A stretch of DNA of 64,000 bases from a virus (IMGVR_UViG_3300030329_006602:1-64000); one strand, 5' to 3'. Numbered from the stretch's first letter, positions 1 to 19,182 are shown. The notes: generated by a model from the sequence alone, not told the origin. Numbers and translations are program-made.

Positions 1-854
1 CCGCCACCAGCCCCTGCCCCTACGGCAGCAGAGCCAATTCCTGCGCCAACTCCTCTACTAGGAAAGTTGTAGGCATAAAGTTCCCCTCCTTTACCAAGGC
101 CATAGCCGTTGCCTTTTTCAGCTTTATCAAAATCTATATCACCCAACTCTGGTTCATCCCTAGCTAGGGTTAATCCAGCAAAATCTATATTATCTTCCGC
201 CTCTATTCCGATTTCCTTTTCGCGTTCCGCTAGGCGCCGATCTAATAGGCCACGGTCTTCATTGCTCTCGCGAATCGCCCTGTCTAATGCGCCTACATCT
301 ACTCCATTGATGTCATTATCGCGGAGGAGGTCCCTTCTATTTAAAACATCCCTGTCTCCCCGCCCCACAATATGATCGTCCACAACACCACCAATATGAT
401 CTCTATTGTAAATTCTCTCATCTCTATCAATTATACCAACGCTTCTGTCGTTGTCAATATATATTTCGTCGTCCCTGTCGCGGAGGATTACATGGTTAGG
501 GTTGCCTACAACCGCGACGTGGGGATCAATAACCCTGTCTCCTCGCACTACTATGTCGGGCGCGTTGTCTAGAACCACTCCCGTTAATCTGTCCCTCCCT
601 ACGCTATGATCCTGTAGTATTTCAACGGGGTGGCGATCTACGTAAACAATTTCGCGATCCACTTCTTTGTGGACTCCATTGAAGAGGTCTCCTTCTTTAT
701 TCCCGAAAACTTCCTCAAGGTCATCAACTGTAGCTATATTAATTTCCGTATCGGAGGGCCTATTGAGAGCTACTAGTAATATAAATAAAAATAGCATGAC
801 ATATCCAGCTATTAAATTAATGATCGAGAATCGTTTTAGTTTTTTGTTATTCAT
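1..854 (-). CDS. Membrane-anchored Asp/Arg/Gly-rich protein, runs off the window start (3' truncated; not in ORF track)
   Basis: ATG at 854; hand translation MNNKKLKRFSIINLIAGYVMLFLFILLVAL (TM) ... SAAVGAGAGG appears open to the window edge. Confidence 0.75.
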   Translation of the reverse strand, partial: MNNKKLKRFSIINLIAGYVMLFLFILLVALNRPSDTEINIATVDDLEEVFGNKEGDLFNGVHKEVDREIVYVDRHPVEILQDHSVGRDRLTGVVLDNAPDIVVRGDRVIDPHVAVVGNPNHVILRDRDDEIYIDNDRSVGIIDRDERIYNRDHIGGVVDDHIVGRGDRDVLNRRDLLRDNDINGVDVGALDRAIRESNEDRGLLDRRLAEREKEIGIEAEDNIDFAGLTLARDEPELGDIDFDKAEKGNGYGLGKGGELYAYNFPSRGVGAGIGSAAVGAGAGG

Positions 855-856
855 AA

Positions 857-882
857 TATATCGTCCACTGGTGGTGGGTTTT
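857..882. repeat. Dispersed 26-nt intergenic element, copy 1 (TATATCGTCCACTGGTGGTGGGTTTT)
   Basis: 24/26 identical to 36600-36625. Confidence 0.8.
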
Positions 883-908
883 GTTTTAAAAAAAATTTTC
901 TTTATAGG

Positions 909-1052
909 TTATTTACACTTGCAGTCTTCGCAACTTGCGTTACACCCACATGCTTCGCAGCGACAGATCTTATCGCCATTACACTTGTGAGTAAGTTTTA
1001 CGTGACTACAGGAGGTAGCCATTAAGGTTAGTGTTAATATTAGGAGTTTCAT
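909..1052 (-). CDS. 47-aa Cys-rich metallothionein-like lipoprotein (not in ORF track)
   Basis: MKLLILTLTLMATSCSHVKLTHKCNGDKICRCEACGCNASCEDCKCK*; ATGA overlap with upstream stop; signal peptide, lipobox-like ATSC, 8 further Cys. Confidence 0.8.
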   Translation of the reverse strand: MKLLILTLTLMATSCSHVKLTHKCNGDKICRCEACGCNASCEDCKCK

Positions 1053-1519
1053 TTGCTTTTATTTTGTGTGTTTTGAGATTCTTTAAATTTTTTTAGAAGG
1101 ATGAGTCGTTCCTGCGCCCCTCTTCTATAGTTTCCGTTGGAGTCTTTTTCATAAACGAGCCTTAAGGTTTCCACTGCGCCATTTTTTACTCCTGTAGGAA
1201 ACCCATGCGGTATGCCATACGCCTTCCGTGTACGCCACTGAAGGCTAATTTGAGGGGTGATTTGGTTTAACTCCGAAATGAGATCAAGATTATTGTTTAT
1301 TACTTCTTTCGTTGTTTTTTTAATATCTTCCTCGTGAAGGGGGAACCCCGAGGGAATTCCTAGAGCTTTCCTTTTTTTTTGTATTTTGTTATCAAGGTGC
1401 GTAATTATTTCCTGATAACGGAGTCGCAAGGCTTCCTCTTTAGGAGTTGGACGCAAGTCTTTATCCCCCTTTAGGACAGGACTAAGGTATAGAATAAGGG
1501 CTGCTAAAGGGACTCTCAC
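1049..1519 (-). CDS. Hypothetical secreted protein with duplicated GIPxGFP motif
   Basis: N-terminal hydrophobic stretch; KALGIPSGFP / KAYGIPHGFP; coupled to neighbours. Confidence 0.7.
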   Translation of the reverse strand: MRVPLAALILYLSPVLKGDKDLRPTPKEEALRLRYQEIITHLDNKIQKKRKALGIPSGFPLHEEDIKKTTKEVINNNLDLISELNQITPQISLQWRTRKAYGIPHGFPTGVKNGAVETLRLVYEKDSNGNYRRGAQERLILLKKFKESQNTQNKSK

Positions 1520-2319
1520 TATTCCCTGCGAGCCTTTGTTTGTATCCTATTTCGTACTTCTTCCGCAAGTGCTTTTTGCGCCGTCTTTAACTCTTGATGT
1601 TTCTCTTTTTGTGACTCTTTAAAGGCCTCTAAAAGTGCCGACTTCTCTTCTTTGGATTTTCCTTTAAGCTCTTGAGATAAGGATTTTCGAGCCAGGTCGA
1701 GACTGTTTTTGAGAAGTTTTACTTCCGCGAGTTTTGCTTTGACTTGGGGGGAAGGTTCGGGGCGTTTCGGACGCTCGGGCTTGTTATCTTTATGCCATTC
1801 TTGAATTTGCTTTCCAATATGTGTGGCATCCTCTATGCGTTCGGCATTCTCCTTGCGGAATGCTTCTACGACTTTTCTGACCTCCTCCTTGGTCGCCCCT
1901 TTTTCAAGTGCATCAATCTTTCTCTTGAGTGCTGCGCGCAGGGAGTCTTGAATCTTTTTATGTAGTTCAATCTTTTCTTTAATTTCCTTTGGTGGTCGTG
2001 GGACAGGCTGTATGGGGGGAATTGGTTTGGGTTTTTGTCCCTCAACGGGTTTTGTAGGCTTCTCCCTTTCCTTCTCTGCATCTTTTTTAAGGTTATTTTT
2101 AATCCAATGTGCTAAGGTAGAGCTTCCCTTGCCAAACCCTCCAGGGAGCGCCACCATATCTCGAGTCTGGATGCGTGGAGGTGGACCCCAATGTCGTGGA
2201 AAAGGCTTTCGTTCGGGACGGTCTACCTTGTCTTTACTTTCCTTGTCTAGGAAAGATCGGGGTTCACTAAATAAAAAGGGACAGAGCCCTAAACAGAGAA
2301 TTAAAATAAGCTTCTTCAT
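1519..2319 (-). CDS. Secreted Lys/Glu-rich helical protein
   Basis: Signal peptide MKKLILILCLGL; compact motif PFPRHWGPPPRIQTRD..LPGGFGKGSSTLAHWI; coiled-coil C-terminus. Confidence 0.75.
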   Translation of the reverse strand: MKKLILILCLGLCPFLFSEPRSFLDKESKDKVDRPERKPFPRHWGPPPRIQTRDMVALPGGFGKGSSTLAHWIKNNLKKDAEKEREKPTKPVEGQKPKPIPPIQPVPRPPKEIKEKIELHKKIQDSLRAALKRKIDALEKGATKEEVRKVVEAFRKENAERIEDATHIGKQIQEWHKDNKPERPKRPEPSPQVKAKLAEVKLLKNSLDLARKSLSQELKGKSKEEKSALLEAFKESQKEKHQELKTAQKALAEEVRNRIQTKARRE

Positions 2320-2328
2320 AGTGCTATA

Positions 2329-2357
2329 ATATTACACTATATAGCACCTAATGTCAA
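2329..2357 (-). promoter_or_regulatory. sigma70-type promoter overlapping a GTGTA motif
   Basis: TTGACA-17 nt-TAATAT on minus strand; GTGTA at 2333-2337. Confidence 0.6.
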
Positions 2358-2599
2358 GGATTTTTTTCTTTAGCCTCTCTTACTTGCCTGATTCGTTCTC
2401 TCATATATTCTTGAAAGAAAAAGTGGTAGGCCTCCTCATCTTCGTTTTCTACTGCCACTTTAATTTCGTGTTTAAAAACTTCCGCCCAGTCTCTGTTCTC
2501 CTCCTTAAGGGCCGTATCTATTGGCTGAGGGTCGTGTTTAACCATGACAGGGCTGCAAGCACTACAAAGTGCAAGCATAACGAGCGCGACAGCCTTCAT
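2354..2599 (-). CDS. Small lipoprotein
   Basis: Signal peptide with LCSAC lipobox. Confidence 0.7.
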   Translation of the reverse strand: MKAVALVMLALCSACSPVMVKHDPQPIDTALKEENRDWAEVFKHEIKVAVENEDEEAYHFFFQEYMRERIRQVREAKEKNP

Positions 2600-2600
2600 T

Positions 2601-2840
2601 CTACTCCTTGTTTTGGACGAGGTCGTAGAGTTTGCGTATATCTACACGCCTATCTTCCAACCGTTTATTTGCCGAGAGCCACCTTTCCTTGTCTCTTACT
2701 TCGTTTTTTGCAAGAGTCACTTGTATTGAGTTTACAAGTGTCTCAAGTTCTTCGAGCCGTTTATTTTCGCGCTTAAGGAAGTATCCTATTACAGAGATAG
2801 CTGTCCCTATGCCAACCAGTATGAATTCATTGTACTCCAT
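2601..2840 (-). CDS. Small protein, N-terminal TM plus coiled coil (holin/spanin-like)
   Basis: One TM helix then heptad pattern; GTGTA motif 9 nt upstream of ATG. Confidence 0.6.
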   Translation of the reverse strand: MEYNEFILVGIGTAISVIGYFLKRENKRLEELETLVNSIQVTLAKNEVRDKERWLSANKRLEDRRVDIRKLYDLVQNKE

Positions 2841-2854
2841 ACCGTACTATACAC

Positions 2855-2878
2855 AAAAGCGCCCTCCAAAAAGGGCGC
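2855..2878 (-). terminator. Rho-independent terminator after hsp20
   Basis: GCGCCCT/AGGGCGC stem followed by T-run on minus strand. Confidence 0.65.
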
Positions 2879-2901
2879 CTCTGAGGGTTTTGGGGTTAAA
2901 A

Positions 2902-3384
2902 TTAAAGAATTTTTACCTTCTTAGGGCTCGCTGCTTCCTTTTTTGGAACGCTAATTAAGAGTATTCCATTGCTGAAGTCTGCTTTAATTTTTTTTGAGTT
3001 AAAATTTGAGCCCAACTTAAAGGAGCGCTTAAAAGAGGAGCGTTTTAATTCCTTGCGGATATATCTGGTGTTGGTATCCTCTGTGTGACTATGCTTTAAG
3101 CCTGAGACCGTTAACACATTCTCTTCGAGGTCTACTGAAACTTCCTCCTTGGTGAGTCCAGGAATTTCTGCCTCGATAGTAATCTTATCGTCGTGATCAA
3201 TAACATCTACCTTGGGGTAGCTATTCTTTTCAAAAAAGCCTACGCCAAAATCTTCAGCGAGACTGGGGAACGCTTTGCCGATTACATTGTCAAATAAAGC
3301 GTCAAATGGAGTCAGGAATTCGTCCCGACTAAACGTGGATGGAACTATTGCGGATGTTCCGAGTCCTCTACTATACTGTGTCAT
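2902..3384 (-). CDS. hsp20: Hsp20/alpha-crystallin small heat-shock protein
   Basis: YPKVDV..EAEIPG..VDLEENVLTVSG..SFKRSFKL..KADFSNGILLISVPK. Confidence 0.95.
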   Translation of the reverse strand: MTQYSRGLGTSAIVPSTFSRDEFLTPFDALFDNVIGKAFPSLAEDFGVGFFEKNSYPKVDVIDHDDKITIEAEIPGLTKEEVSVDLEENVLTVSGLKHSHTEDTNTRYIRKELKRSSFKRSFKLGSNFNSKKIKADFSNGILLISVPKKEAASPKKVKIL

Positions 3385-3455
3385 ATTTATCCTTGGGTTA
3401 GTGATTATGAGCCCTTGCGGCGCTCGCGAAACCTCTTTTGAGTATTTCTACCTAT

Positions 3456-3484
3456 ATAGTAGCACAAAGTATGCCAAAAGTCAA
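3456..3484 (-). promoter_or_regulatory. Nested sigma70 and sigma54-like promoter of hsp20
   Basis: TTGACT-17 nt-TACTAT whose spacer holds TTGGCATACTTTGTGC (GG-N10-GC). Confidence 0.6.
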
Positions 3485-3490
3485 GAATTT

Positions 3491-4831
3491 TTAAATAAGT
3501 TCCTTTATAGGGGTCGTGTAATCTAAAAGATAGCGAGGGCGACCTGAAGGGTCAATAAGTTGGGTGTCTGCTGGATCAATTCCGCAGTGTTTATAGATGG
3601 TGGCCATTATTTCCTGCACATGTACAGGACGCTCTATTGGCTCTCCCGCTAAATGATCGGTAACTCCTATAACCTGTCCCATTTTCAGTCCCCCGCCTAT
3701 CATAAGAGCGCTTTGCACTTGAGGCCAGTGATCTCTTCCTGCCTTATCATTAACTATGGGGGTGCGCCCAAACTCTCCCCATGCCACCACTAAAACATCT
3801 TTATCTAAACCGCGTTGATAGAGGTCGCTAATCAAGGCCGACAGGGCTAAGTCAAAGGGGGGTAAAATAGCACGCATTTTAGGGTAATTATTATCGTGGG
3901 AATCGAAACCTAGATATCCTCCCCAATTTAACGATACATATCTGGTTCCTGCTTCTACTAGCCTTCGGGCCAAAAGTAACCTCTCGGTTTGTCCTCTCCA
4001 ACGCTCTGGAATTTTATCTACGTAGGGGTTTCTCGTTTTCTGGGGTTCTCTACTGAGGTCCATGGCCTCGGATATTTTTCCCGAAAGAACCATGTTTACC
4101 GACTCTTGGGCATACTGATCAAATAGCTCCATGTTCTGCGAATTATCCCAGTGGCGTTTTATTTTATCTAAACTCCCTAAGAGTCCCACCCGATCATGCA
4201 ACCTTTTCTCAGGAATTGTGGGGTGAAAATTGGCGGGACTAACCTGAGGATTAAAGGGAGCATAACGTGGGCCGAGCCAACCATGCTGCACCTCTTCTTG
4301 GGACCCTCCCGTTTTGTCCCAAACAAAGGCGGGCATCCCATCCCTTCCTCCTAGAATCTTACTAATCACTCCTCCTATAGGAGGAGCTCCACCAATAGCA
4401 CGCATGGCAGGCTTCGGGAGTCCTAATCCTGGATAACCTAATTGTGTGGTGTCATAGTTATGTTTATTAACATTACCAATAACTGTTCGGATGATAGTAA
4501 ATTTGTCTGTGAGTTGAGCTAAATGTGGCAAAAGCTCACAAATATGAGTGCCTGGAACCTTGGTCCGTATGGGTGAAAATTCTCCGCGCAACTCTAGGCT
4601 GGAATTCGGCTTCATATCGAAGGTATCCATTTGGGGAGGGCCCCCTTCTAGATGTAAATTTATTACGGCCTTATAGGAAGGATGCGGGTTGTTTTGTGCA
4701 GCTTGAAGTCGTAGCACATCAGGGGCTGCCAAATTTCCAAATCCTAATCCCAATGCTCCTACTTTAAGGAAATTTCTCCGTGAAATTCCATCACAAAATC
4801 CGTCAATGACGTCTCCCTTTATCGTAAGCAT
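3491..4831 (-). CDS. DUF1501 family protein, Tat-exported
   Basis: CDGISRRNFLKVG twin-arginine; GGPPQMDTFDMKP; LLLARRLVEAG; FDSHDNN; WGEFGRTP..GRDHWP. Confidence 0.92.
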   Translation of the reverse strand: MLTIKGDVIDGFCDGISRRNFLKVGALGLGFGNLAAPDVLRLQAAQNNPHPSYKAVINLHLEGGPPQMDTFDMKPNSSLELRGEFSPIRTKVPGTHICELLPHLAQLTDKFTIIRTVIGNVNKHNYDTTQLGYPGLGLPKPAMRAIGGAPPIGGVISKILGGRDGMPAFVWDKTGGSQEEVQHGWLGPRYAPFNPQVSPANFHPTIPEKRLHDRVGLLGSLDKIKRHWDNSQNMELFDQYAQESVNMVLSGKISEAMDLSREPQKTRNPYVDKIPERWRGQTERLLLARRLVEAGTRYVSLNWGGYLGFDSHDNNYPKMRAILPPFDLALSALISDLYQRGLDKDVLVVAWGEFGRTPIVNDKAGRDHWPQVQSALMIGGGLKMGQVIGVTDHLAGEPIERPVHVQEIMATIYKHCGIDPADTQLIDPSGRPRYLLDYTTPIKELI

Positions 4832-4834
4832 TAA

Positions 4835-5152
4835 TTAACTAAAAGATTTTCCACAGCCGCACGTAGCTTGAGCATTGGGATTCTTAATCTCGAATCCCTT
4901 GCCGCTCAAACCATCATCAAAATCTATTTCTACTCCTCTCAGATAGTCGGTGCTAGATCTCTCTACAAAAAGGGTCACCCCTTGGGACTCGACTTTTACA
5001 TCTTCCTTTTGCGGTACCCCGAACGTCATTTTATATTCGAAACCCGAGCATCCTCCTGGGTCCACAAAAACACGCAATCTCTGAGAAGGATCTTCCCGTT
5101 TTTTTTGGAGTGATTCGACTTGGAGGCCCGCGCGCTGGGTTAAGGTGATCAT
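4835..5152 (-). CDS. iscA: A-type Fe-S cluster carrier (IscA/ErpA/HesB family)
   Basis: GGCSGFEY and NPNAQATCGCGKSF; all three conserved Cys present. Confidence 0.95.
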   Translation of the reverse strand: MITLTQRAGLQVESLQKKREDPSQRLRVFVDPGGCSGFEYKMTFGVPQKEDVKVESQGVTLFVERSSTDYLRGVEIDFDDGLSGKGFEIKNPNAQATCGCGKSFS

Positions 5153-6435
5153 GAAAATAATTCTGTCAGTATTCTTCCTTGATTTAAAATTGGGTGGGGC
5201 CTGCCGCTGTGGTCGTAGTAGTGGTGCTTGATGTTCACTCCCATATGTTCATAGAGTGTGGCTAATACATCGGGAGGAGTAATTCCTACTACGGGTTCAG
5301 ACCCCGTCTTGTCGCTCTCTCCAGCCAGCCTTCCCCCTTTAATTTTTCCTCCTGCAATAGCTGCAGCCATAGAGCGAGACCAGTGATCCCTGCCTGCATT
5401 AGCGTTAATTTTAGGGGTGCGGCCAAATTCTCCCCAAGCAACCACCATCACATCATCTATTAGACCCCGCGCATGAAGGTCAATTATTAAGGCGCTAAAA
5501 GCTTTATCAAACTGGGGTAAATTGTTATTGCCCATAGATTTGTCGCTATTTTGGTGGGTGTCCCATCCAAAAGGAGTTTTAACGGTCACCATTTTCACTC
5601 CATTCTCTACTAAGCGGCGCGCTAATAACAAATCTCTACCAAAACCTGGCCCGTAAAGGTCTTTGGTAAAAGTGGATTCCTTTTCTATATTAAATGCATT
5701 TGCCGCTTTACCGCTGGTCAATAGTCCCTGAGCCTTCAAGTTGAACTCGTCGATGGATTTAACCATTCCCGATTTATCTAATACTTTTCTAAACTTATCA
5801 AAGGACTTCAAAAGATCCCCCCTATTATCCACTCTATTGATGGTGAGCGAGTCATCTAGGGTAAAATTGGTATCTTTATAATCCTCGGTGCTCGAAGGAC
5901 GCTGTTTGGTTTGATAGGGTCCAAATTCATGCCCCAGATAACCTGGGTAGGTTCCCCGAGTATGATTTGGAATAACTACATAAGGAGGAACTTGTGTGTT
6001 GGACTTGGCGTGTTCGGCAATAGTGGCACCAATACTGGGGTAAAAGTTTTGTTGTTGGTTGGGCTCCACAGCCTTATACCCAGAGTTCATTATTTCATGG
6101 GCTGAACTATGGTTGTTATTGGTGTGATGAAGCCCTCTGATAATCGACCATTTGTCCATGCAGTCGGCACAATTTACTAAGTGTTCGGGGAGCTGAATTC
6201 CATTCACATTAGTAGAGATAGCTTTAAAGTGTCCTTTGTAGGGTTGGGGGGCATCGGGTTTCGGGTCAAAAGTTTCATGGTGGGAGGGGCCACCGTTCAT
6301 CCATACTATAATTACCGCTTTCTTATTATTTAATGTCTTCGCTTTTGCTTGTAGTTCAATAAGTTGCGGGAGGCTTAAGGAGGTTAGTCCTCCTATGGCC
6401 CCAACCTTAATAAAGGATCGTCGCGAGGTGTTCAT
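5149..6435 (-). CDS. DUF1501 family protein, Tat-exported (second paralog)
   Basis: SRRSFIKVG; GGPSHHETFDPKP; LLLARRLVENGV; WDTHQN; WGEFGRTPKINANAGRDHW. Confidence 0.92.
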   Translation of the reverse strand: MNTSRRSFIKVGAIGGLTSLSLPQLIELQAKAKTLNNKKAVIIVWMNGGPSHHETFDPKPDAPQPYKGHFKAISTNVNGIQLPEHLVNCADCMDKWSIIRGLHHTNNNHSSAHEIMNSGYKAVEPNQQQNFYPSIGATIAEHAKSNTQVPPYVVIPNHTRGTYPGYLGHEFGPYQTKQRPSSTEDYKDTNFTLDDSLTINRVDNRGDLLKSFDKFRKVLDKSGMVKSIDEFNLKAQGLLTSGKAANAFNIEKESTFTKDLYGPGFGRDLLLARRLVENGVKMVTVKTPFGWDTHQNSDKSMGNNNLPQFDKAFSALIIDLHARGLIDDVMVVAWGEFGRTPKINANAGRDHWSRSMAAAIAGGKIKGGRLAGESDKTGSEPVVGITPPDVLATLYEHMGVNIKHHYYDHSGRPHPILNQGRILTELFS

Positions 6436-6449
6436 GTATGCATATACAC

Positions 6450-6479
6450 AAAAACCGCCCCCAATAGGAGGCGGTTTTT
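6450..6479. terminator. Bidirectional-type intrinsic terminator
   Basis: AAAAACCGCC-N10-GGCGGTTTTT inverted repeat. Confidence 0.75.
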
Positions 6480-6496
6480 GAACTAGAGGACTCTCT

Positions 6497-6745
6497 TTAC
6501 TTGCCCTTGGAGCAGCAGCTCTGCTTCTGAAGGAGTCCCACGATTAGAAGAAGGGTAATTAAACCAGCCAGGCTAGCTCCCTCACCAACAAAGCCATTTA
6601 CGATAGCCTGAAGGTTACTAATCACGTTCATCCCTGCTTCCTCACCGAAAACCACTTGTGCGAGAACAAGAAGTCCGATGACTGACGTTAACACTGTAAA
6701 TAGTCCACCGATGGCAGACTTAACTGTATTTGCTATATTATCCAT
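6497..6745 (-). CDS. Small two-TM membrane protein
   Basis: Two hydrophobic segments; directly downstream of the beta-barrel gene. Confidence 0.75.
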   Translation of the reverse strand: MDNIANTVKSAIGGLFTVLTSVIGLLVLAQVVFGEEAGMNVISNLQAIVNGFVGEGASLAGLITLLLIVGLLQKQSCCSKGK

Positions 6746-6758
6746 ATATTATTTGGGG

Positions 6759-7430
6759 TTAAAATTTAAGACGCAATCCGAGACCCCATACGGTCTCATA
6801 ATCACGAGTGTCGGTATCCGAAAGGGCTACATCAGCATAAACATTAAGGTTTTCCTTTAAGGTTTTAGAGGCTGTTACCCGCGCGCCATAATAAGTGGAA
6901 TCGGTAGTAGAGGTTAGGTCGGTTTGACCTAGAACACCCGCCACCTCCAGATTAACGACGTCTAAGTCGAAATCATGACTCAATTCCCCCTCAAAAGTAT
7001 ACAGGCTGTCATCTGTATCCCTATAGAGGCTCACTGAGGGCGATAGAAGGGTGTTTAATCCCAGCGAGGCAAAAGCCTCTAGGTTATCCCCGTTAGAACT
7101 GTTAGAGGTATTATAAACCCCCGCATAAGCATTGAGCTTATTATCCAACAAGGAAGTTCCCAGCCCTAAAACTGCCTCGTCGCTGTCGGCGCTTGAAGCT
7201 GAGGTGGCCTGATTGGTAAATAGATCCCCGAAGAAATCTACTTGTCCCACTCCCACATTAAATCCCACCTGAGCCTGAATGGCCTCATCAGAGACAATTT
7301 GGCCTCGGCGGTGGTAATCGGAGGTATATTTGGTACCAGCGTTACCCTTGACGTTAAGATCCTCTGCCGCAGCAAAGGTGAATGATAGTCCTAGAAGGAC
7401 AGTAATTAGTGATACTAATTTAGTTTTCAT
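6759..7430 (-). CDS. Outer-membrane beta-barrel protein (TIGR02001/Gcw_chp-like)
   Basis: Signal peptide; YTSDYHRRG motif (family form SDYxFRG); amphipathic strands; C-terminal Phe (GLGLRLKF). Confidence 0.8.
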   Translation of the reverse strand: MKTKLVSLITVLLGLSFTFAAAEDLNVKGNAGTKYTSDYHRRGQIVSDEAIQAQVGFNVGVGQVDFFGDLFTNQATSASSADSDEAVLGLGTSLLDNKLNAYAGVYNTSNSSNGDNLEAFASLGLNTLLSPSVSLYRDTDDSLYTFEGELSHDFDLDVVNLEVAGVLGQTDLTSTTDSTYYGARVTASKTLKENLNVYADVALSDTDTRDYETVWGLGLRLKF

Positions 7431-7477
7431 AAGTTATTAAATACAGTTATGTTGTTGTAAAGGGAGATTTTAAGTTT

Positions 7478-7687
7478 CTAATTTGTTTTTTCAAATTTAT
7501 TATCGCCGATATACCTAATCGCTTGTATAAATTCCTCTCCCAGCATGGATTCTTTGGGGGAAAATCTACTCAGGTGTTTTCTTGTTGGGTTAAAGTCGTG
7601 CGCCCGTTTATATATGTAATATATTTGCCCAACGACAAAGAGTCCTTGTGCTTGCACGCCGCTTAGGTCCACCTCTTCTTGACTCAT
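7478..7687 (-). CDS. Hypothetical protein
   Basis: Likely start MSQEE in ATGA overlap with the QueF-like stop. Confidence 0.55.
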   Translation of the reverse strand: MSQEEVDLSGVQAQGLFVVGQIYYIYKRAHDFNPTRKHLSRFSPKESMLGEEFIQAIRYIGDNKFEKTN

Positions 7688-8109
7688 ACCACTATCGACC
7701 ACTCATCATGAGGGTCGGACCAATCTTTATATTTTTCTTCTCCACCCCTTACGGACCAATCGGAATCGATGGCGAGTTTAGAGGAGATTCCCCCTCGTGG
7801 ATTGAAAATCATCACGAGCCTCAGCCTGTCGGGCTTATATGTTTTCATTAAATCCGCATAGAAAATATTAATTAAGCGTTCATATGATACCACGATATCC
7901 CGCAGGTGAAAGACGTAATGCTTTAAACTTTTGAGTTCAATAACCTTGTCCTCTGGATAGAAACTCAAGTACGCATTAGCAAAGTCGGGCTGCTCTTTTA
8001 CCCCCAAGAAAGTGAACTCTGGGATTTTTATTTTAATCTCATACGCTTCCTTTGATGGATTGGGTATGGATTTAAGAATAGAACTATTAATATCTGTATA
8101 GGTTTTCAT
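7684..8109 (-). CDS. QueF-family T-fold protein lacking the catalytic cysteine
   Basis: PEFTFLG..QPDFA, QueF motif ELKSLKHY, FNPRGGIS; no Cys anywhere in the protein. Confidence 0.85.
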   Translation of the reverse strand: MKTYTDINSSILKSIPNPSKEAYEIKIKIPEFTFLGVKEQPDFANAYLSFYPEDKVIELKSLKHYVFHLRDIVVSYERLINIFYADLMKTYKPDRLRLVMIFNPRGGISSKLAIDSDWSVRGGEEKYKDWSDPHDEWSIVV

Positions 8110-9122
8110 TAAAAATCGTCTTCGAGCGCGCCGCCCTGTTGGTACTCACGCACTCTACGCTCGAAAAAATTACCCATAGCTTGTACGTCAACTACTTCAC
8201 CTAGCCAAGGAAAAGGATTCTCATCACTGGGAAAACGAAAATCCAATCCGATTCCCTCTAGTCTCCTGTTGCCGATGAAGTGCATATAATCTACAAACAT
8301 ATCGGCGTTAAGACCTAAAATACCTGTAGGAAGAACATCATTGGCGTAATTTATTTCCAACTCGACGGCCTTCTTCATGTGTTCAATAAACTCTCCTTGA
8401 ATTGTCTTGGTCCAAATTGTGGGATTCTGTTCTATGATCGTGTTTATAAGATAAGTGCCGAAAGCAATATGGCTACTCTCGTCTCGCAACGTGTATTTTA
8501 TTTGATCGGAAATGCCCTGAAGTTTATTTTGTCTACCCAAGGCGAGGAGCATGGCGAATCCACTAAAGAAAAAGGTTCCCTCGCATACTATATAATAAGA
8601 GAGGAGGTTTCTTAAGATTTCTTGCTTGCCTGCTTTTGTCGAGGGGTTGAAGTCTTGCCTGCTAATATCCGAGGTAATCTCCATGAGGAAATCATCTTTA
8701 GCTTTGATGCTAGGTATTGTTTCGTAGGCATTAAATACTTCTTCGATATCCAGATCCAAACTGTCGCAAATATATACAACGGTAAGGTTATGAAGGCTTT
8801 CTTCAAAAGCTTGGCGCAAAATATACTGACGACATTCCCCATCCGTAACAAATCTAAAAGCAGAAATAAGAAGGTTATTGCCAACCAGAGACTCGCTTCC
8901 TGCAAAAAACCCGAGGCATCGCTTGACGAGGAGTTTTTCGTCGTCGGTGATTTCATTGTTTTTCCATTGTTTTATATCGTGCTGCATGGAAATCTCTGTG
9001 GGCATCCAATTGTTGGCGCAGCTTTTAAGAAATAATTCCCAAGCATACTTGTGCTTGTGCGGAAGTATTCTATTGACTCCTGCCACGTCGGCGCCTAAGA
9101 GTTCTCCAGTTTTATCTTTCAT
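8109..9122 (-). CDS. nrdB: Ribonucleotide reductase beta subunit, class Ic (R2c)-type
   Basis: WMPTEI; AGSESLVGNN; QAFEESLHNLTV; EGTFFFSGF; RDESSH; NFFERRVREY. Confidence 0.95.
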   Translation of the reverse strand: MKDKTGELLGADVAGVNRILPHKHKYAWELFLKSCANNWMPTEISMQHDIKQWKNNEITDDEKLLVKRCLGFFAGSESLVGNNLLISAFRFVTDGECRQYILRQAFEESLHNLTVVYICDSLDLDIEEVFNAYETIPSIKAKDDFLMEITSDISRQDFNPSTKAGKQEILRNLLSYYIVCEGTFFFSGFAMLLALGRQNKLQGISDQIKYTLRDESSHIAFGTYLINTIIEQNPTIWTKTIQGEFIEHMKKAVELEINYANDVLPTGILGLNADMFVDYMHFIGNRRLEGIGLDFRFPSDENPFPWLGEVVDVQAMGNFFERRVREYQQGGALEDDF

Positions 9123-9131
9123 AGTAAACCT

Positions 9132-9160
9132 ACTATAGCATATATTCTATTGAATGTCAA
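9132..9160 (-). promoter_or_regulatory. sigma70 promoter of nrdB-queF-like
   Basis: TTGACA-17 nt-TATAGT, 9 nt before ATG. Confidence 0.75.
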
Positions 9161-9163
9161 GTA

Positions 9164-11608
9164 TTATTGGCAGGATTCACAAGTTTCTCCGCGCGCCATT
9201 GCATCTATACTGCATTCCGTTGGCTCGCTAGAGCTTTCTTGCGTGGTAGCTTTTTCCACTTTGGTGGCTGCGCGATTTCGAAGATAATAGGTGGTTTTTA
9301 AACCGTATTCCCAACAGGCCATATATATGTCATTAAGATATTTGAGTGAAGTGGTTTTGTTGTATAGGTTAAAACTGATAGATTGGTCCATCCATTTCTG
9401 TCTCACCGCATTCGCTTCAATAAGTTTTAGCATATCTCTGTCGAAGGCAGTTTTGTATTTACTTTTAAGGTCATCTGGAATTGACCCGTTAAGAAGTCTA
9501 AGGTCCCCATCCGCTTGCTTGATTAAGGTTGCAATTTCAGGTCCCCATAGACCCCTGTTTTTCATGTCATTGACAAAATGTTCATTTACAATAAAGAAGT
9601 TTCCGCTTTTATTCTCATAAACAAACAGTACGGAAAAATTTGGTTCAATGCTTTGTTCTACTCCGTTGATGTATCCTATAGTTGCGGTGGGTGCAATCGC
9701 CATTACATTAGAGTTTCGCATCCCATCTTTAAGTATGTGGTTTCTCAGTTGGTCCCATTTTTCTTTTGTAAGTTGGCTATATTTGCTTTTGACGCTGTAA
9801 TCGTGCGAAATTTCCCTATACTCCATTAAGTCCTTATGGGAATCCACGGGAAGCTTACCTTGAGACCATAGGGATCCTTCATATGTTTCGTATGACCCTC
9901 GTTCTTGTGCCAGTTGGTTGCTTGCTTGGATGGCGTGGAAGGAGTAAAATTCAAACAAGCCATCACTAAAAGAGACGGCCTCATCGCTGTCTATTTTAAT
10001 GTCAAGGGTATGTAATACGTCGTGCAGACCCATTAACCCTAATCCTATTGGGCGATTTTTGAGATTTGAATTCTTGGCCTCGGGGGTGGGATAAAAATTA
10101 AGGTCTATAACGTTGTCCAGCATTCGGATGGCGGTATGGATAGTTTGCGCCAGCTTTTTATAGTCTATACCGTTTTTCTTTTCGGTTAGGTGATGAAATA
10201 GGTTGACTGACCCCAGGTTGCATACAGCTGTTTCTCCCACCTTAGTTTTTTGTCCATGTTGGTATTGTGAGGCTTTGGTGTGGAGGGTTATTTCTGTACA
10301 TAAGTTAGAGCTATGTACGACTCCTTCGTGTTGATTGGTGTATCGAATGTTGCATGGATCCTTAAAGGTATTCCATGGATGAGAGGTCTCAAATAGAACT
10401 TTGAGCATTTTTTTCCATAATTCCTTGGCTGAAATCTTGCGGAAGTTTTTTATCTCTCCTTGTTCGGCCAGCTTGCAGTATTTTTTATACTTTCTGTCGA
10501 ATTTTTTCCCAAATAAATCATGGAGGTCAGCACACTCTTTGGGGTCAAACAAGTACCACTCTTCATCCTTTTGAGCGGCCCGCATGAAAGCATCGGGTAT
10601 CCATGAGGCCGTATTTAAGTCATGACATCTTAAGCGATCATCTCCAGTGTTGCGTCGTAAGTTTAAAAACTCTTCGTAGTCTAAATGCCACGGCTCTAGA
10701 TAGGCGCAGCCAGCTCCTGGCCGCTTGCCCCCTTGATTCACCGCAACTAAAAGATCATTATATATCTTGAGCCATGGAATAAGTCCACTAGAAATGCCAT
10801 TGGTTCCTTGGATGTGGGACCCTGTAGATCTAAAAGGTGTTACATCAAGACCGAGCCCTCCTGCATATTTGGATTTGCGCGCTTCCTGCCAAGCTCCATC
10901 AAAAATTCCATCTATAGAGTCATCGAAGGTATTAAGATAGCAGGAGCTTAATTGTGAGTGGGCCGTCCCGCTATTAAAGAGGGTGGGGGTAGAGGATGTA
11001 TAAAGAAGGCGGCTAATAAGATTATAAAACTCCACAGCCTTTTCCTCTTTATTTTCCTCGTTAATTGAAAGCCCCATGGCAACCCGCATCCAAAAACCTT
11101 GAGGAGATTCCATGATCTTGTCATGCTCTCTGATGAAATAACGATCATACAGAATTTGAATGCCGAGATACTTGAATTTTTTATCTCTTTCTACCTGAAT
11201 TGCGTCGGCTAGGTATTTTAAATCAAACGTGAGGAGTTTTGGGTTGAGTCGCTCTGACTTTACTAACTTTTTAATGTTTTGAACAAAGCTTTTTTTATAT
11301 TGTAGCTCAAAGACATCGCTGTCTACCCCCTCCCTGAATACTTCTTTGTATAAATTATTAAGAACAAGCCTCGCAGCCGCCAGCGAGTAATTCGGCTCCT
11401 TCTCTATCTTCTCTCTCGCCGAGAGTACTAGGGCTTGGTCTATTTGGGCGCTGGGGATCTTGTCGTAAAGCTGTAGTTGTGCATCTAGTACAATTTCACT
11501 GGCTGAAACATTTTCTATTCCCTGGCAGGCCCTTTCTGCGCTGGCGTTAATTTTTCCTACTATAAATTCCTCTAGTCGTCCGTTCCTCTTTTTTACGTGA
11601 ATCTCCAT
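9164..11608 (-). CDS. nrdA: Ribonucleotide reductase class I alpha subunit with ATP cone
   Basis: VKKRNG ATP cone; TPTLFNSG; QLSSCYL; SNLCTEI; VCNLGS; APTA; LKTTYYLR; C-terminal CESCQ. Confidence 0.97.
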   Translation of the reverse strand: MEIHVKKRNGRLEEFIVGKINASAERACQGIENVSASEIVLDAQLQLYDKIPSAQIDQALVLSAREKIEKEPNYSLAAARLVLNNLYKEVFREGVDSDVFELQYKKSFVQNIKKLVKSERLNPKLLTFDLKYLADAIQVERDKKFKYLGIQILYDRYFIREHDKIMESPQGFWMRVAMGLSINEENKEEKAVEFYNLISRLLYTSSTPTLFNSGTAHSQLSSCYLNTFDDSIDGIFDGAWQEARKSKYAGGLGLDVTPFRSTGSHIQGTNGISSGLIPWLKIYNDLLVAVNQGGKRPGAGCAYLEPWHLDYEEFLNLRRNTGDDRLRCHDLNTASWIPDAFMRAAQKDEEWYLFDPKECADLHDLFGKKFDRKYKKYCKLAEQGEIKNFRKISAKELWKKMLKVLFETSHPWNTFKDPCNIRYTNQHEGVVHSSNLCTEITLHTKASQYQHGQKTKVGETAVCNLGSVNLFHHLTEKKNGIDYKKLAQTIHTAIRMLDNVIDLNFYPTPEAKNSNLKNRPIGLGLMGLHDVLHTLDIKIDSDEAVSFSDGLFEFYSFHAIQASNQLAQERGSYETYEGSLWSQGKLPVDSHKDLMEYREISHDYSVKSKYSQLTKEKWDQLRNHILKDGMRNSNVMAIAPTATIGYINGVEQSIEPNFSVLFVYENKSGNFFIVNEHFVNDMKNRGLWGPEIATLIKQADGDLRLLNGSIPDDLKSKYKTAFDRDMLKLIEANAVRQKWMDQSISFNLYNKTTSLKYLNDIYMACWEYGLKTTYYLRNRAATKVEKATTQESSSEPTECSIDAMARGETCESCQ

Positions 11609-18477: not shown

Positions 18478-19182
18478 TTAAAAGAATTTCTTTTCTAGCT
18501 TCTCTATTATGAATTTTAAAATTTCACTTCTAAGGATGTCGTCCTTGTCGAATTCGAAGTATTCTATTCCTCTTTTTTTGCTTTCTTCATCATGAAAGAT
18601 GTTTGCTATGTCCCTGAAGCCCGTCTTTCCGTTAATGTCACTCTGCAGAAAGTCTCCACAAATAAATAGCTTACTACCCTCTCCGATGCGAGTAATTAGG
18701 GTTACCAGTTCTTTGGCGGTAAAATTCTGCGCCTCGTCTGCTACTACTATTTTATTTTTCCAGTTGGCCCCCCTTAGGTAGTTAACGGGTATGGCTAATA
18801 ACCTGTTGGATTTTCTTAAAGATTCTTGGTCTGCAGGCTTTAGCATTTCTTCTAGTTTATCGTATAGGGGGCGAAGGTATGGATCAAATTTTTCATCCGC
18901 ATTGCCTGGGAGGGATCCCATATTTTTCTCAGCACTTTCGATAATAGTTCTTACATACAGTAAGTCGAGGTCCGTACTGCTAGAGAGCCAGCGGAGTGCC
19001 GAATATACTGCCATATAGGTTTTAGTTGAACCTGCGGGGCCGCTCAGGAATATAATTTTAGTTTGTGCCGCCAAAGAAATGCGGAGAAAATCTTTTTGTT
19101 TTTCCGTGAGGCGGGGGGAATTTATTGATAAAGTTTGCTTAAGGGTGGGTATACGTTTTTTGTTATTTTTTTGGTTCGTCAC
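18478..19182 (-). CDS. phoH: PhoH-like ATPase
   Basis: GPAGSTKTY; GSLPG..EKFDPY..PLYD; YLRGANW; DEAQN; TRIGEGSK..GD..QSD; DILRS. Confidence 0.95.
   Translation of the reverse strand: MTNQKNNKKRIPTLKQTLSINSPRLTEKQKDFLRISLAAQTKIIFLSGPAGSTKTYMAVYSALRWLSSSTDLDLLYVRTIIESAEKNMGSLPGNADEKFDPYLRPLYDKLEEMLKPADQESLRKSNRLLAIPVNYLRGANWKNKIVVADEAQNFTAKELVTLITRIGEGSKLFICGDFLQSDINGKTGFRDIANIFHDEESKKRGIEYFEFDKDDILRSEILKFIIEKLEKKFF

Follow-up and report, generated by a model that had tools for sequence, protein, structure and literature searches.

A probable phage auxiliary operon of two DUF1501 proteins with an A-type iron-sulfur carrier between them

Why should a phage carry two genes of an orphan bacterial protein family, DUF1501, with the gene of an A-type iron-sulfur (Fe-S) carrier set tightly between them? 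The question is raised by IMGVR_UViG_3300030329_006602:1-64000, a stretch of 64,000 nucleotides (the window) that forms the first 64 kb of a 76,331-bp virus record of IMG/VR, where DUF1501_A, an IscA gene and DUF1501_B follow one another on the minus strand. These genes are very probably a true auxiliary operon of the phage, with DUF1501 enzymes that derive from hosts and are exported, and they lie in a cargo region beside nrdAB in the genome of a large marine phage with a tail. The operon exists and belongs to a virus; genes of its general kind, host-derived auxiliary genes, are known, and the DUF1501-IscA-DUF1501 combination is new. The position of IscA is probably not accidental, because the order DUF1501-then-IscA arose twice in phages from unrelated parts. 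Taken whole, as a statement that covers the auxiliary operon, the export of its enzymes and a non-accidental place for IscA, this explanation is put forward tentatively, at just under an even chance.

A three-gene unit in phage DNA

Over its first 60 kb, the window has all its genes on the minus strand. Read in the sense in which they are transcribed, those at the locus are nrdA, nrdB, a QueF-like gene, a 74-codon open reading frame (ORF), genes for a 223-aa and an 82-aa protein, DUF1501_A (5149-6435), IscA (4835-5152), DUF1501_B (3491-4831) and Hsp20 (2902-3384). Both DUF1501 ORFs match PF07394 over model positions 2-389/390, scoring 265 bits (E 1.2e-78, DUF1501_B) and 299 bits (E 8.9e-89, DUF1501_A), where the cut-off is 27. 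They are 34% identical to each other, and all family-invariant columns (GG...D-x-K, H, W-D-T/S-H, W-G-E-F-G-R-T-P and G-R-D-H) are present in both, in agreement with an initial annotation of this DNA that had described two divergent, intact paralogs. Each also has the twin-arginine motif claimed there, SRRNFLK in DUF1501_B and SRRSFIK in DUF1501_A, followed by a hydrophobic stretch, and the R5 and R6 pair is at least 90% conserved across 56 DUF1501 homologs; a signal for twin-arginine translocation (Tat) is predicted for both proteins from these motifs.

The tight packing of the unit was confirmed by reading the sequence. The DUF1501_A stop and the IscA start share an ATGA overlap (minus strand TTTTCATGATCACC), and a 3-nt gap separates IscA from DUF1501_B at the junction TAA-TTA-ATG (minus strand TAATTAATG). 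Upstream of DUF1501_A, at 6440-6490 on the minus strand, RNA folding and a terminator scan place an intrinsic terminator, a perfect 14-bp hairpin with a U-run (-24.4 kcal/mol, z -6.55) for which no shuffled sequence folds equally well. A GTGTA motif stands 10-14 nt ahead of the DUF1501_A start codon, with GTGTATATGCATAC-ATG coming directly after the hairpin and U-run. At the other end, a sigma-70-like promoter ahead of Hsp20 (TTGACT-17-TACTAT with a TG upstream, 3456-3484, minus strand) was called by consensus scan only, and its sequence was read. We infer from this arrangement a three-gene transcription unit that is bounded at its 5′ side by the terminator and GTGTA motif and at its 3′ side by the Hsp20 promoter.

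The contig is viral, and its lineage is that of a large tailed phage. The window's record (G000), with a CheckV completeness of 53%, encodes DnaB, primase, a UvsX-like recombinase, a PD-(D/E)XK exonuclease, nrdAB (nrdA, 9164-11608; nrdB, 8109-9122), Hsp20 and PhoH, and 27 of its 102 ORFs are common to G001, a 211-kb relative rated complete. The latter encodes a large terminase (phrog_2, E 2.6e-26), rIIA (E 1.8e-85), tail-fibre proteins and DNA ligase. Five IMG/VR contigs, the complete G001 among them, encode relatives of DUF1501_A at 64-82% identity, and the identical DUF1501_A protein occurs on 17 contigs, the longest of 187 kb. The viral context presumed by the initial annotation is thus borne out by replication genes and by a relative that has a terminase, and not by the 76-kb record itself, in which PHROG and Pfam searches recognise neither capsid nor terminase; scans of its 64-76 kb tail with the same profiles gave no structural matches. 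A Pfam search with Terminase_6C found no match in the five related records, the terminase surfacing later through PHROGs, and a search with Gp23 found none there either, yet its control matched nowhere, so that this result is uninformative. Among 50,697 GenBank phage records there was no match by blastn of the locus or tblastn of DUF1501_A.

As an alternative to a phage operon, the locus could be the DNA of a cell, or a chimera in which host and phage sequence have been joined. The absence of capsid and terminase genes from the record would agree with it, as would DUF1501_B, which is 79-83% identical to cellular proteins. However, the GC content at third codon positions (GC3) of DUF1501_B is 0.40, close to the 0.43-0.45 of its phage neighbours and unlike the 0.65-0.75 of its cellular orthologs, and regional GC at the locus agrees with that of the flanks. 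The junctions are exact gene boundaries, phage replication genes lie on one flank and an Hsp20 of the phage-typical family phrog_432 on the other, DUF1501_A recurs in the five related viral contigs, and other viral contigs, assembled independently, have the same architecture. The phage-like GC3 of DUF1501_B, the exact junctions and the independent assemblies make a chimeric join unlikely, and we regard a cellular or chimeric origin of the locus as highly improbable.

The host is most likely a marine bacterium of the Planctomycetes-Verrucomicrobia-Chlamydiae (PVC) group, with Opitutae/Puniceicoccaceae-type Verrucomicrobiota as the best guess, resting on the labels of metagenome-assembled genomes (MAGs). 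To our knowledge, marine Verrucomicrobiota and Planctomycetota have few described phages, and the DUF1501 cassette may serve as a host marker for PVC phages. Two labels deserve comment. The locus L009, labelled Rhodospirillaceae, holds a 71% ortholog of DUF1501_B and is syntenic with the Puniceicoccaceae-labelled L012; its label looks doubtful. L139 (PBIO01000033.1) is identical to IMGVR_UViG_2788500220_000010 (L007), a 23,721-bp viral contig, and sits inside a MAG labelled Halobacteriovorax sp. SP2999, probably through a binning error.

The three genes differ in their histories. DUF1501_A has about 20 protein clusters at 59-82% identity, after which identity falls abruptly to about 45-47%, the level of proteins from Verrucomicrobiales, Gemmataceae and Planctomycetaceae. 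For DUF1501_B, identity is 83% to a protein encoded on a 495-kb contig and declines by degrees to about 61% in Pirellulales; its best species-representative locus is L012, at 79%, where the ortholog has a cellular context, among MoxR, DUF58, BamB-like, mandelate-racemase (MR_MLE) and DUF7133-cytochrome genes. The IscA protein matches PF01521 (Fe-S_biosyn) with 63.9 bits (cut-off 26.3, E 1.9e-17) and phrog_17776 (E 6e-33), retains the ligand cysteines C35, C98 and C100, invariant in the alignment, in the pattern C-x(n)-C-G-C, and has no signal sequence; its identity to ErpA of Opitutae, among them Opitutaceae, Nibricoccus and Lacunisphaera, is 60-65%. A comparison with PVC hosts, suggested by the initial annotation, gives a divided answer in the trees, where DUF1501_B is nested inside a cellular clade and IscA among the Opitutae proteins, and DUF1501_A falls within a phage-only clade that is sister to cellular proteins. 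IscA is probably a host-derived cytoplasmic A-type carrier, DUF1501_B probably a recent capture of cellular origin and DUF1501_A probably an old copy of the phage lineage; on the sequence comparisons, A, IscA and B have three separate origins. Co-capture of DUF1501_B with IscA was ruled out because the cellular loci of its orthologs (L012 and L009) have no IscA neighbour.

Viral DUF1501 genes are not rare, a profile scan of IMG/VR having found at least 429 stretches that encode one; the best 80 of these include the locus L288, described below. Tandem copies occur in 36 of 80 viral loci and are common in cellular loci also. In L225, L271 and L272 a DUF1501 gene has a terminase-like gene directly on one side and a portal-like gene on the other (24-38% identical to those of G001), and so belongs to the packaging module and not to the nrdAB cargo region. 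In the literature searched, no treatment of DUF1501, PF07394 or DUF1549/DUF1553 as phage auxiliary genes was found, and this result, together with the GenBank search, bears out the initial impression that DUF1501 had not been described in that role. As an undescribed class of auxiliary gene, it may matter for the turnover of organic phosphorus or sulfur in the ocean.

Predicted fold and likely function of the DUF1501 proteins

Sequence and profile searches of the PDB with DUF1501 returned only spurious matches. The AlphaFold2 model of DUF1501_A (predicted local distance difference test score, pLDDT, 86; predicted template modelling score, pTM, 0.85) aligns over residues 35-428 with the alkaline-phosphatase superfamily. 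The best fold matches are ENPP7, Xac NPP, ENPP4 and ENPP6 (Z 19.6-19.8), and the match to ENPP7 or Xac NPP at Z 19.8 has a root-mean-square deviation (rmsd) of 3.2 over 249 residues; further matches are to PafA (Z 18.9), many S1 sulfatases (Z 16-18) and MCR-1, EptA and LtaS (Z about 15). The core fold is thus predicted to be one that is also found in nucleotide pyrophosphatases/phosphodiesterases (NPP/ENPP), PafA, S1 sulfatases and phosphonate monoester hydrolases, at Z 15-20 over about 250 residues.

Residues D57, K59, H109, D292, H294, E336, R339, D350 and H351 are invariant in the 56 homologs, both window proteins included. The D-x-H and D-H pairs are of the kind that binds metal in the alkaline-phosphatase superfamily and stand at positions typical of its metal site, and they are candidate ligands. 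DUF1501 differs from the members of this superfamily in an identity to them of about 10%, in a near-universal Tat motif and in having no clearly conserved Ser/Thr nucleophile: the candidates vary among the 56 homologs, S51 being Ser in 40, T55 Thr in 37 and S110 Ser in 39. A regex search for the sulfatase formylglycine motif C/S-x-P/A-x-R found none in DUF1501_A or DUF1501_B, and the likeness in fold to S1 sulfatases holds at the level of the superfamily only. No alignment column exceeds 57% Cys, and the few cysteines in A stand at other positions than those in B; DUF1501, which has no conserved cysteines, is therefore no Fe-S protein.

Taken together, the fold, the conserved residues and the signal motif make DUF1501_A and DUF1501_B most plausibly Tat-exported, metal-dependent hydrolases or transferases of phospho- or sulfo-esters in the periplasm. 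In the mechanism that we propose, the GTGTA-type phage promoter directly after the terminator would drive DUF1501_A, then IscA, then DUF1501_B. Both DUF1501 proteins would fold in the cytoplasm, be exported to the periplasm by the host Tat system and act there as metal-dependent enzymes of the alkaline-phosphatase superfamily. The benefit would be the release of nutrients for phage replication, or a remodelling of the envelope. The cyanophage genes pstS, phoA and phoH are phage auxiliary genes for phosphate acquisition. The present unit resembles them in that genes for host-derived envelope or periplasmic proteins lie beside genes of nucleotide metabolism and are presumed to feed phage DNA synthesis, and the window has a phoH gene as well; it differs in the protein family and in its hosts, most likely PVC bacteria and not cyanobacteria.

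In cells, DUF1501 is encoded in modules with PSCyt1, PSCyt2 and PSD1 (DUF1549/DUF1553), which have been described from Planctomycetes, Verrucomicrobia and Lentisphaerae (Kamneva et al. 2012, PMC3542564), and the PVC module has been tentatively linked to carbohydrate use (PMC5615132). The phage proteins share with these modules the DUF1501 family, the Tat motifs and all invariant residues, and their cellular relatives are PVC proteins. What sets the phage copies apart is that they stand under a phage promoter motif, with an A-type carrier between them (an arrangement seen in none of 117 cellular DUF1501 loci), and without the large partner that has haem motifs. Searches with PSD1/DUF1553 (PF07587) gave no match in G000 or G001, whereas three cellular PVC genomes used as positive controls gave 62, 49 and 44. 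In flanks of 5-10 kb, PSD1 accompanies DUF1501 at five of 80 viral loci; among cellular loci it does so at 33 of 79 and at 26 of 37 (42-70%). The absence of the usual partners, remarked in the initial annotation, accordingly stands for PSD1/DUF1553; DUF1800, named there too, was not searched for. The phage enzymes would then function without a phage-encoded PSCyt/PSD1 partner.

Some related phages are organised differently. In L251 and L252 (IMGVR_UViG_3300023084_000012 and 3300023176_007894; 1-11265), whose nrdB and nrdA are 89% and 76% identical to those of the window, a 694-aa protein with PSCyt2 (DUF1549) and PSD1 (DUF1553) domains is encoded directly upstream of two DUF1501 genes. Four related contigs have a 654-aa protein with bacterial TSP3 (calcium-binding) repeats next to the phage-clade DUF1501_A (G001, 160714-162678; L221, 7155-9149; L251, 1293-2960; L264, 3317-5002), which is absent from the window's record, and the same slot in L008 holds a 938-aa protein with immunoglobulin-like (Ig-like) and Laminin_G_3 domains. 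These neighbours may be phage substitutes for the PSD1 partner.

DUF1501 and its PSCyt/PSD1 partners are an orphan system from among the most expanded gene families of PVC bacteria, with 44-62 partner copies per genome. The phage version is a minimal one, in which the enzyme stands alone or with an A-type carrier, and its expression and assay should be far simpler than those of the cellular modules.

The place of IscA between the DUF1501 genes

Is IscA part of the system, or did it settle between the DUF1501 genes by chance? The linkage implied by the initial annotation is missing among close relatives and recurs farther away. None of the four nearest related records searched, the complete genome G001 among them, has a PF01521 gene; in L007, two unrelated small ORFs fill the slot between DUF1501_A and Hsp20. 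A metagenome scan for IscA matched cellular ErpA only, at 56-63% identity. The recurrence is found in a distant phage clade, in 16 contigs in addition to the viral locus L288, where a DUF1501 gene (2291-3538), IscA (3535-3852, with an ATGA overlap) and a second DUF1501 gene (3882-5186) lie downstream of a phage-type deoxynucleoside monophosphate (dNMP) kinase and a PD-(D/E)XK nuclease.

A search with the L288 IscA found 36 viral loci. Nineteen loci other than L288 have an IscA at least 74% identical to it, and at 16 of them (74-100%) a DUF1501 gene lies upstream on the same strand; at the other three, IscA is at most 650 bp from the locus start and the upstream gene is largely out of view. Ten full-length copies of this upstream DUF1501 form a single orthologous group in the tree (local support 100%), and the flanks of the pair vary, holding nrdAB in some contigs and DnaB, dNMP-kinase-like or nuclease genes, or rIIA-like genes, in others. 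Gaps of 300-800 bp separate DUF1501 from IscA in L318, L319, L324 and L329 and may hold small ORFs. The window's IscA is only 42% identical to that of L288, and both it and DUF1501_A fall in other clades than their L288 counterparts, which on the trees means that the order DUF1501-then-IscA arose at least twice in phages, from non-orthologous parts.

The pairing has no counterpart elsewhere. Among 80 other viral IscA loci none has a DUF1501 gene within 5 kb, and no IscA was found at the 117 cellular DUF1501 loci. A general linkage of ErpA and DUF1501 in cells was considered and ruled out, DUF1501 lying within 8 kb of ErpA at three of 80 cellular loci and adjacent at none. We read the IscA-DUF1501 pairing as non-random, though two such events, both of them in cargo regions, do not amount to proof.

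A-type carriers (IscA, SufA and ErpA) have been described as auxiliary genes of marine viruses (Nishimura et al. 2017, PMC5332604). The window's IscA is like these in belonging to the same family, in its three conserved cysteines, in a patchy occurrence among related phages and in its derivation from a host. Unlike them, it is translationally coupled to a protein of the predicted alkaline-phosphatase superfamily that has a Tat motif and no cysteine ligands; the known viral carriers are discussed with Fe-S clients of the radical-SAM, Cas4 and ClpP types. A search of the 76-kb record turned up no radical-SAM client for IscA, and the PD-(D/E)XK exonuclease encoded there has eight cysteines in no clear Cas4 pattern.

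IscA may instead be an independent auxiliary gene of general use to the Fe-S or iron proteins of phage or host, perhaps in support of nucleotide metabolism near nrdAB, of nucleases or of sugar-modifying enzymes, and that came to lie between the DUF1501 genes through a shared hot-spot for cargo. This is a serious possibility, to which we give rather less than an even chance. Phage genomes commonly have ATGA overlaps between genes of any function, and the three genes of the unit differ in origin and age. What speaks against an independent IscA is that the adjacency arose twice from non-orthologous parts, that the pair of the L288 clade stays together while its flanks change, that the other viral IscA loci lack DUF1501 nearby and that the record offers no radical-SAM client.

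Several observations that would favour such independence also weigh, with others, against a functional role of IscA in an operon of exported enzymes. A-type carriers are common in viruses, at least 589 IMG/VR stretches encoding one, and are established, patchily distributed auxiliary genes that are scattered over several groups of marine viruses and lacking from close relatives (PMC5332604). In the present phage, too, IscA is missing from the four nearest relatives, and the sister contigs L273 and L285 of the L288 clade have DUF1501 genes without it. Both pairing events lie in cargo regions that collect host genes, and two origins are a small number. DUF1501 has no conserved cysteines and cannot be a classical Fe-S client, and the role of A-type carriers as iron donors is itself debated. 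With neither a conserved Ser/Thr/Cys nucleophile nor a sulfatase motif, hydrolase chemistry is not assured; the export, metal content and activity of the DUF1501 proteins are predictions from sequence and model, and the Tat signals are called from motif only. The host is assigned from MAG labels, of which the Rhodospirillaceae label of L009 looks inconsistent.

The preferred reading remains that of an auxiliary operon in which IscA has a part. Co-expression of IscA would supply cytoplasmic iron or Fe-S to enzymes that are metallated before Tat export, and the repeated pairing suggests a maturation of this sort, dependent on iron or Fe-S. That IscA is functionally coupled to the DUF1501 proteins is a proposition we hold almost, if not quite, as readily as we doubt it. 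A more specific version, in which DUF1501 needs an iron-containing cofactor other than Fe-S that is inserted in the cytoplasm before Tat export, and in which PVC phages twice recruited an A-type carrier as dedicated iron donor, is speculative and rather unlikely; PhoX and PhoD, Tat-exported Fe/Ca phosphatases, are precedents for it. If true, it would give a first functional handle on an orphan enzyme family that is among the largest in Planctomycetes and Verrucomicrobia, and a new class of client for A-type carriers.

Neighbouring genes

Upstream of the terminator lie the genes of the 223-aa protein (6759-7430) and the 82-aa protein (6497-6745), both on the minus strand, which the initial annotation correctly took for a beta-barrel and a protein with two transmembrane (TM) segments. 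The first, a signal-peptide protein, is modelled as a 12-stranded outer-membrane beta-barrel with a signal helix (AlphaFold2 pLDDT 93), and the second shows two hydrophobic segments by inspection and ends in CCSKGK. By Foldseek, the best fits of the barrel are PcoB and KdgM (template modelling score 0.74 for each, rmsd 3.6-4.1) within a set of solved structures that also includes VhGalP and NanC (scores about 0.6-0.74 by target, rmsd 3.6-5.4). Its match to Pfam Phage_OMP (PF24653), at 18.8 bits, is under the 27-bit cut-off, and a few of the 41 members of its family match Gcw_chp, OMP_b-brl or Porin_4. The family is small, with about 80 representatives among 1.84 billion proteins. The pair is adjacent in three phage genomes, being found also in G001 (74% and 50% identity) and in L251/L252 (63% and 37%).

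It had been proposed that the DUF1501 enzymes come with their own pore, and the five genes could accordingly be one envelope system, in which an outer-membrane pore and a two-TM protein work with both periplasmic DUF1501 enzymes. The genes are adjacent and co-oriented, the barrel has the fold of a small substrate channel like KdgM, NanC or PcoB, and the distant relative L251/L252 has Hsp20, barrel, TM protein, PSCyt2/PSD1 and two DUF1501 genes within 7 kb, beside nrdAB. However, between the two groups stand a strong terminator and then a fresh promoter motif, and the five genes are therefore probably two units and not a single operon. In the complete genome G001 about 109 kb separate the pair, at 50 kb, from DUF1501, at 159 kb; the barrel is absent from G002-G004, which carry DUF1501_A, and no homologue of it was found in the DUF1501 flanks of L004-L008 or beside the DUF1501-IscA genes of L288. 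The claim of a dedicated pore is not supported by these observations, and a five-gene system is improbable, with a small probability left to it by the renewed co-location in L251/L252. The pair could be a phage-installed channel or an accessory for lysis or entry.

The PSCyt2/PSD1 and DUF1501 module of L251/L252 adjoins Hsp20, the barrel, the two-TM gene, the TSP3-repeat protein and nrdAB, which is the gene set of the window in another order. In the window, the QueF-like gene (7684-8109, minus strand) follows nrdB, and the 74-codon ORF lies on the same strand between it and the gene of the 223-aa protein. G001 contains giant ORFs of 6589, 3810 and 3032 codons (185387-205156, 109068-120500 and 87476-96574), and the window's record breaks off within an open frame of more than 1729 codons (L003, 7644-12830). 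The PhoH-like gene at 18478-19182 (PF02562, E 4e-46) is a common marker of marine phages, and its copy in G001 is 65% identical.

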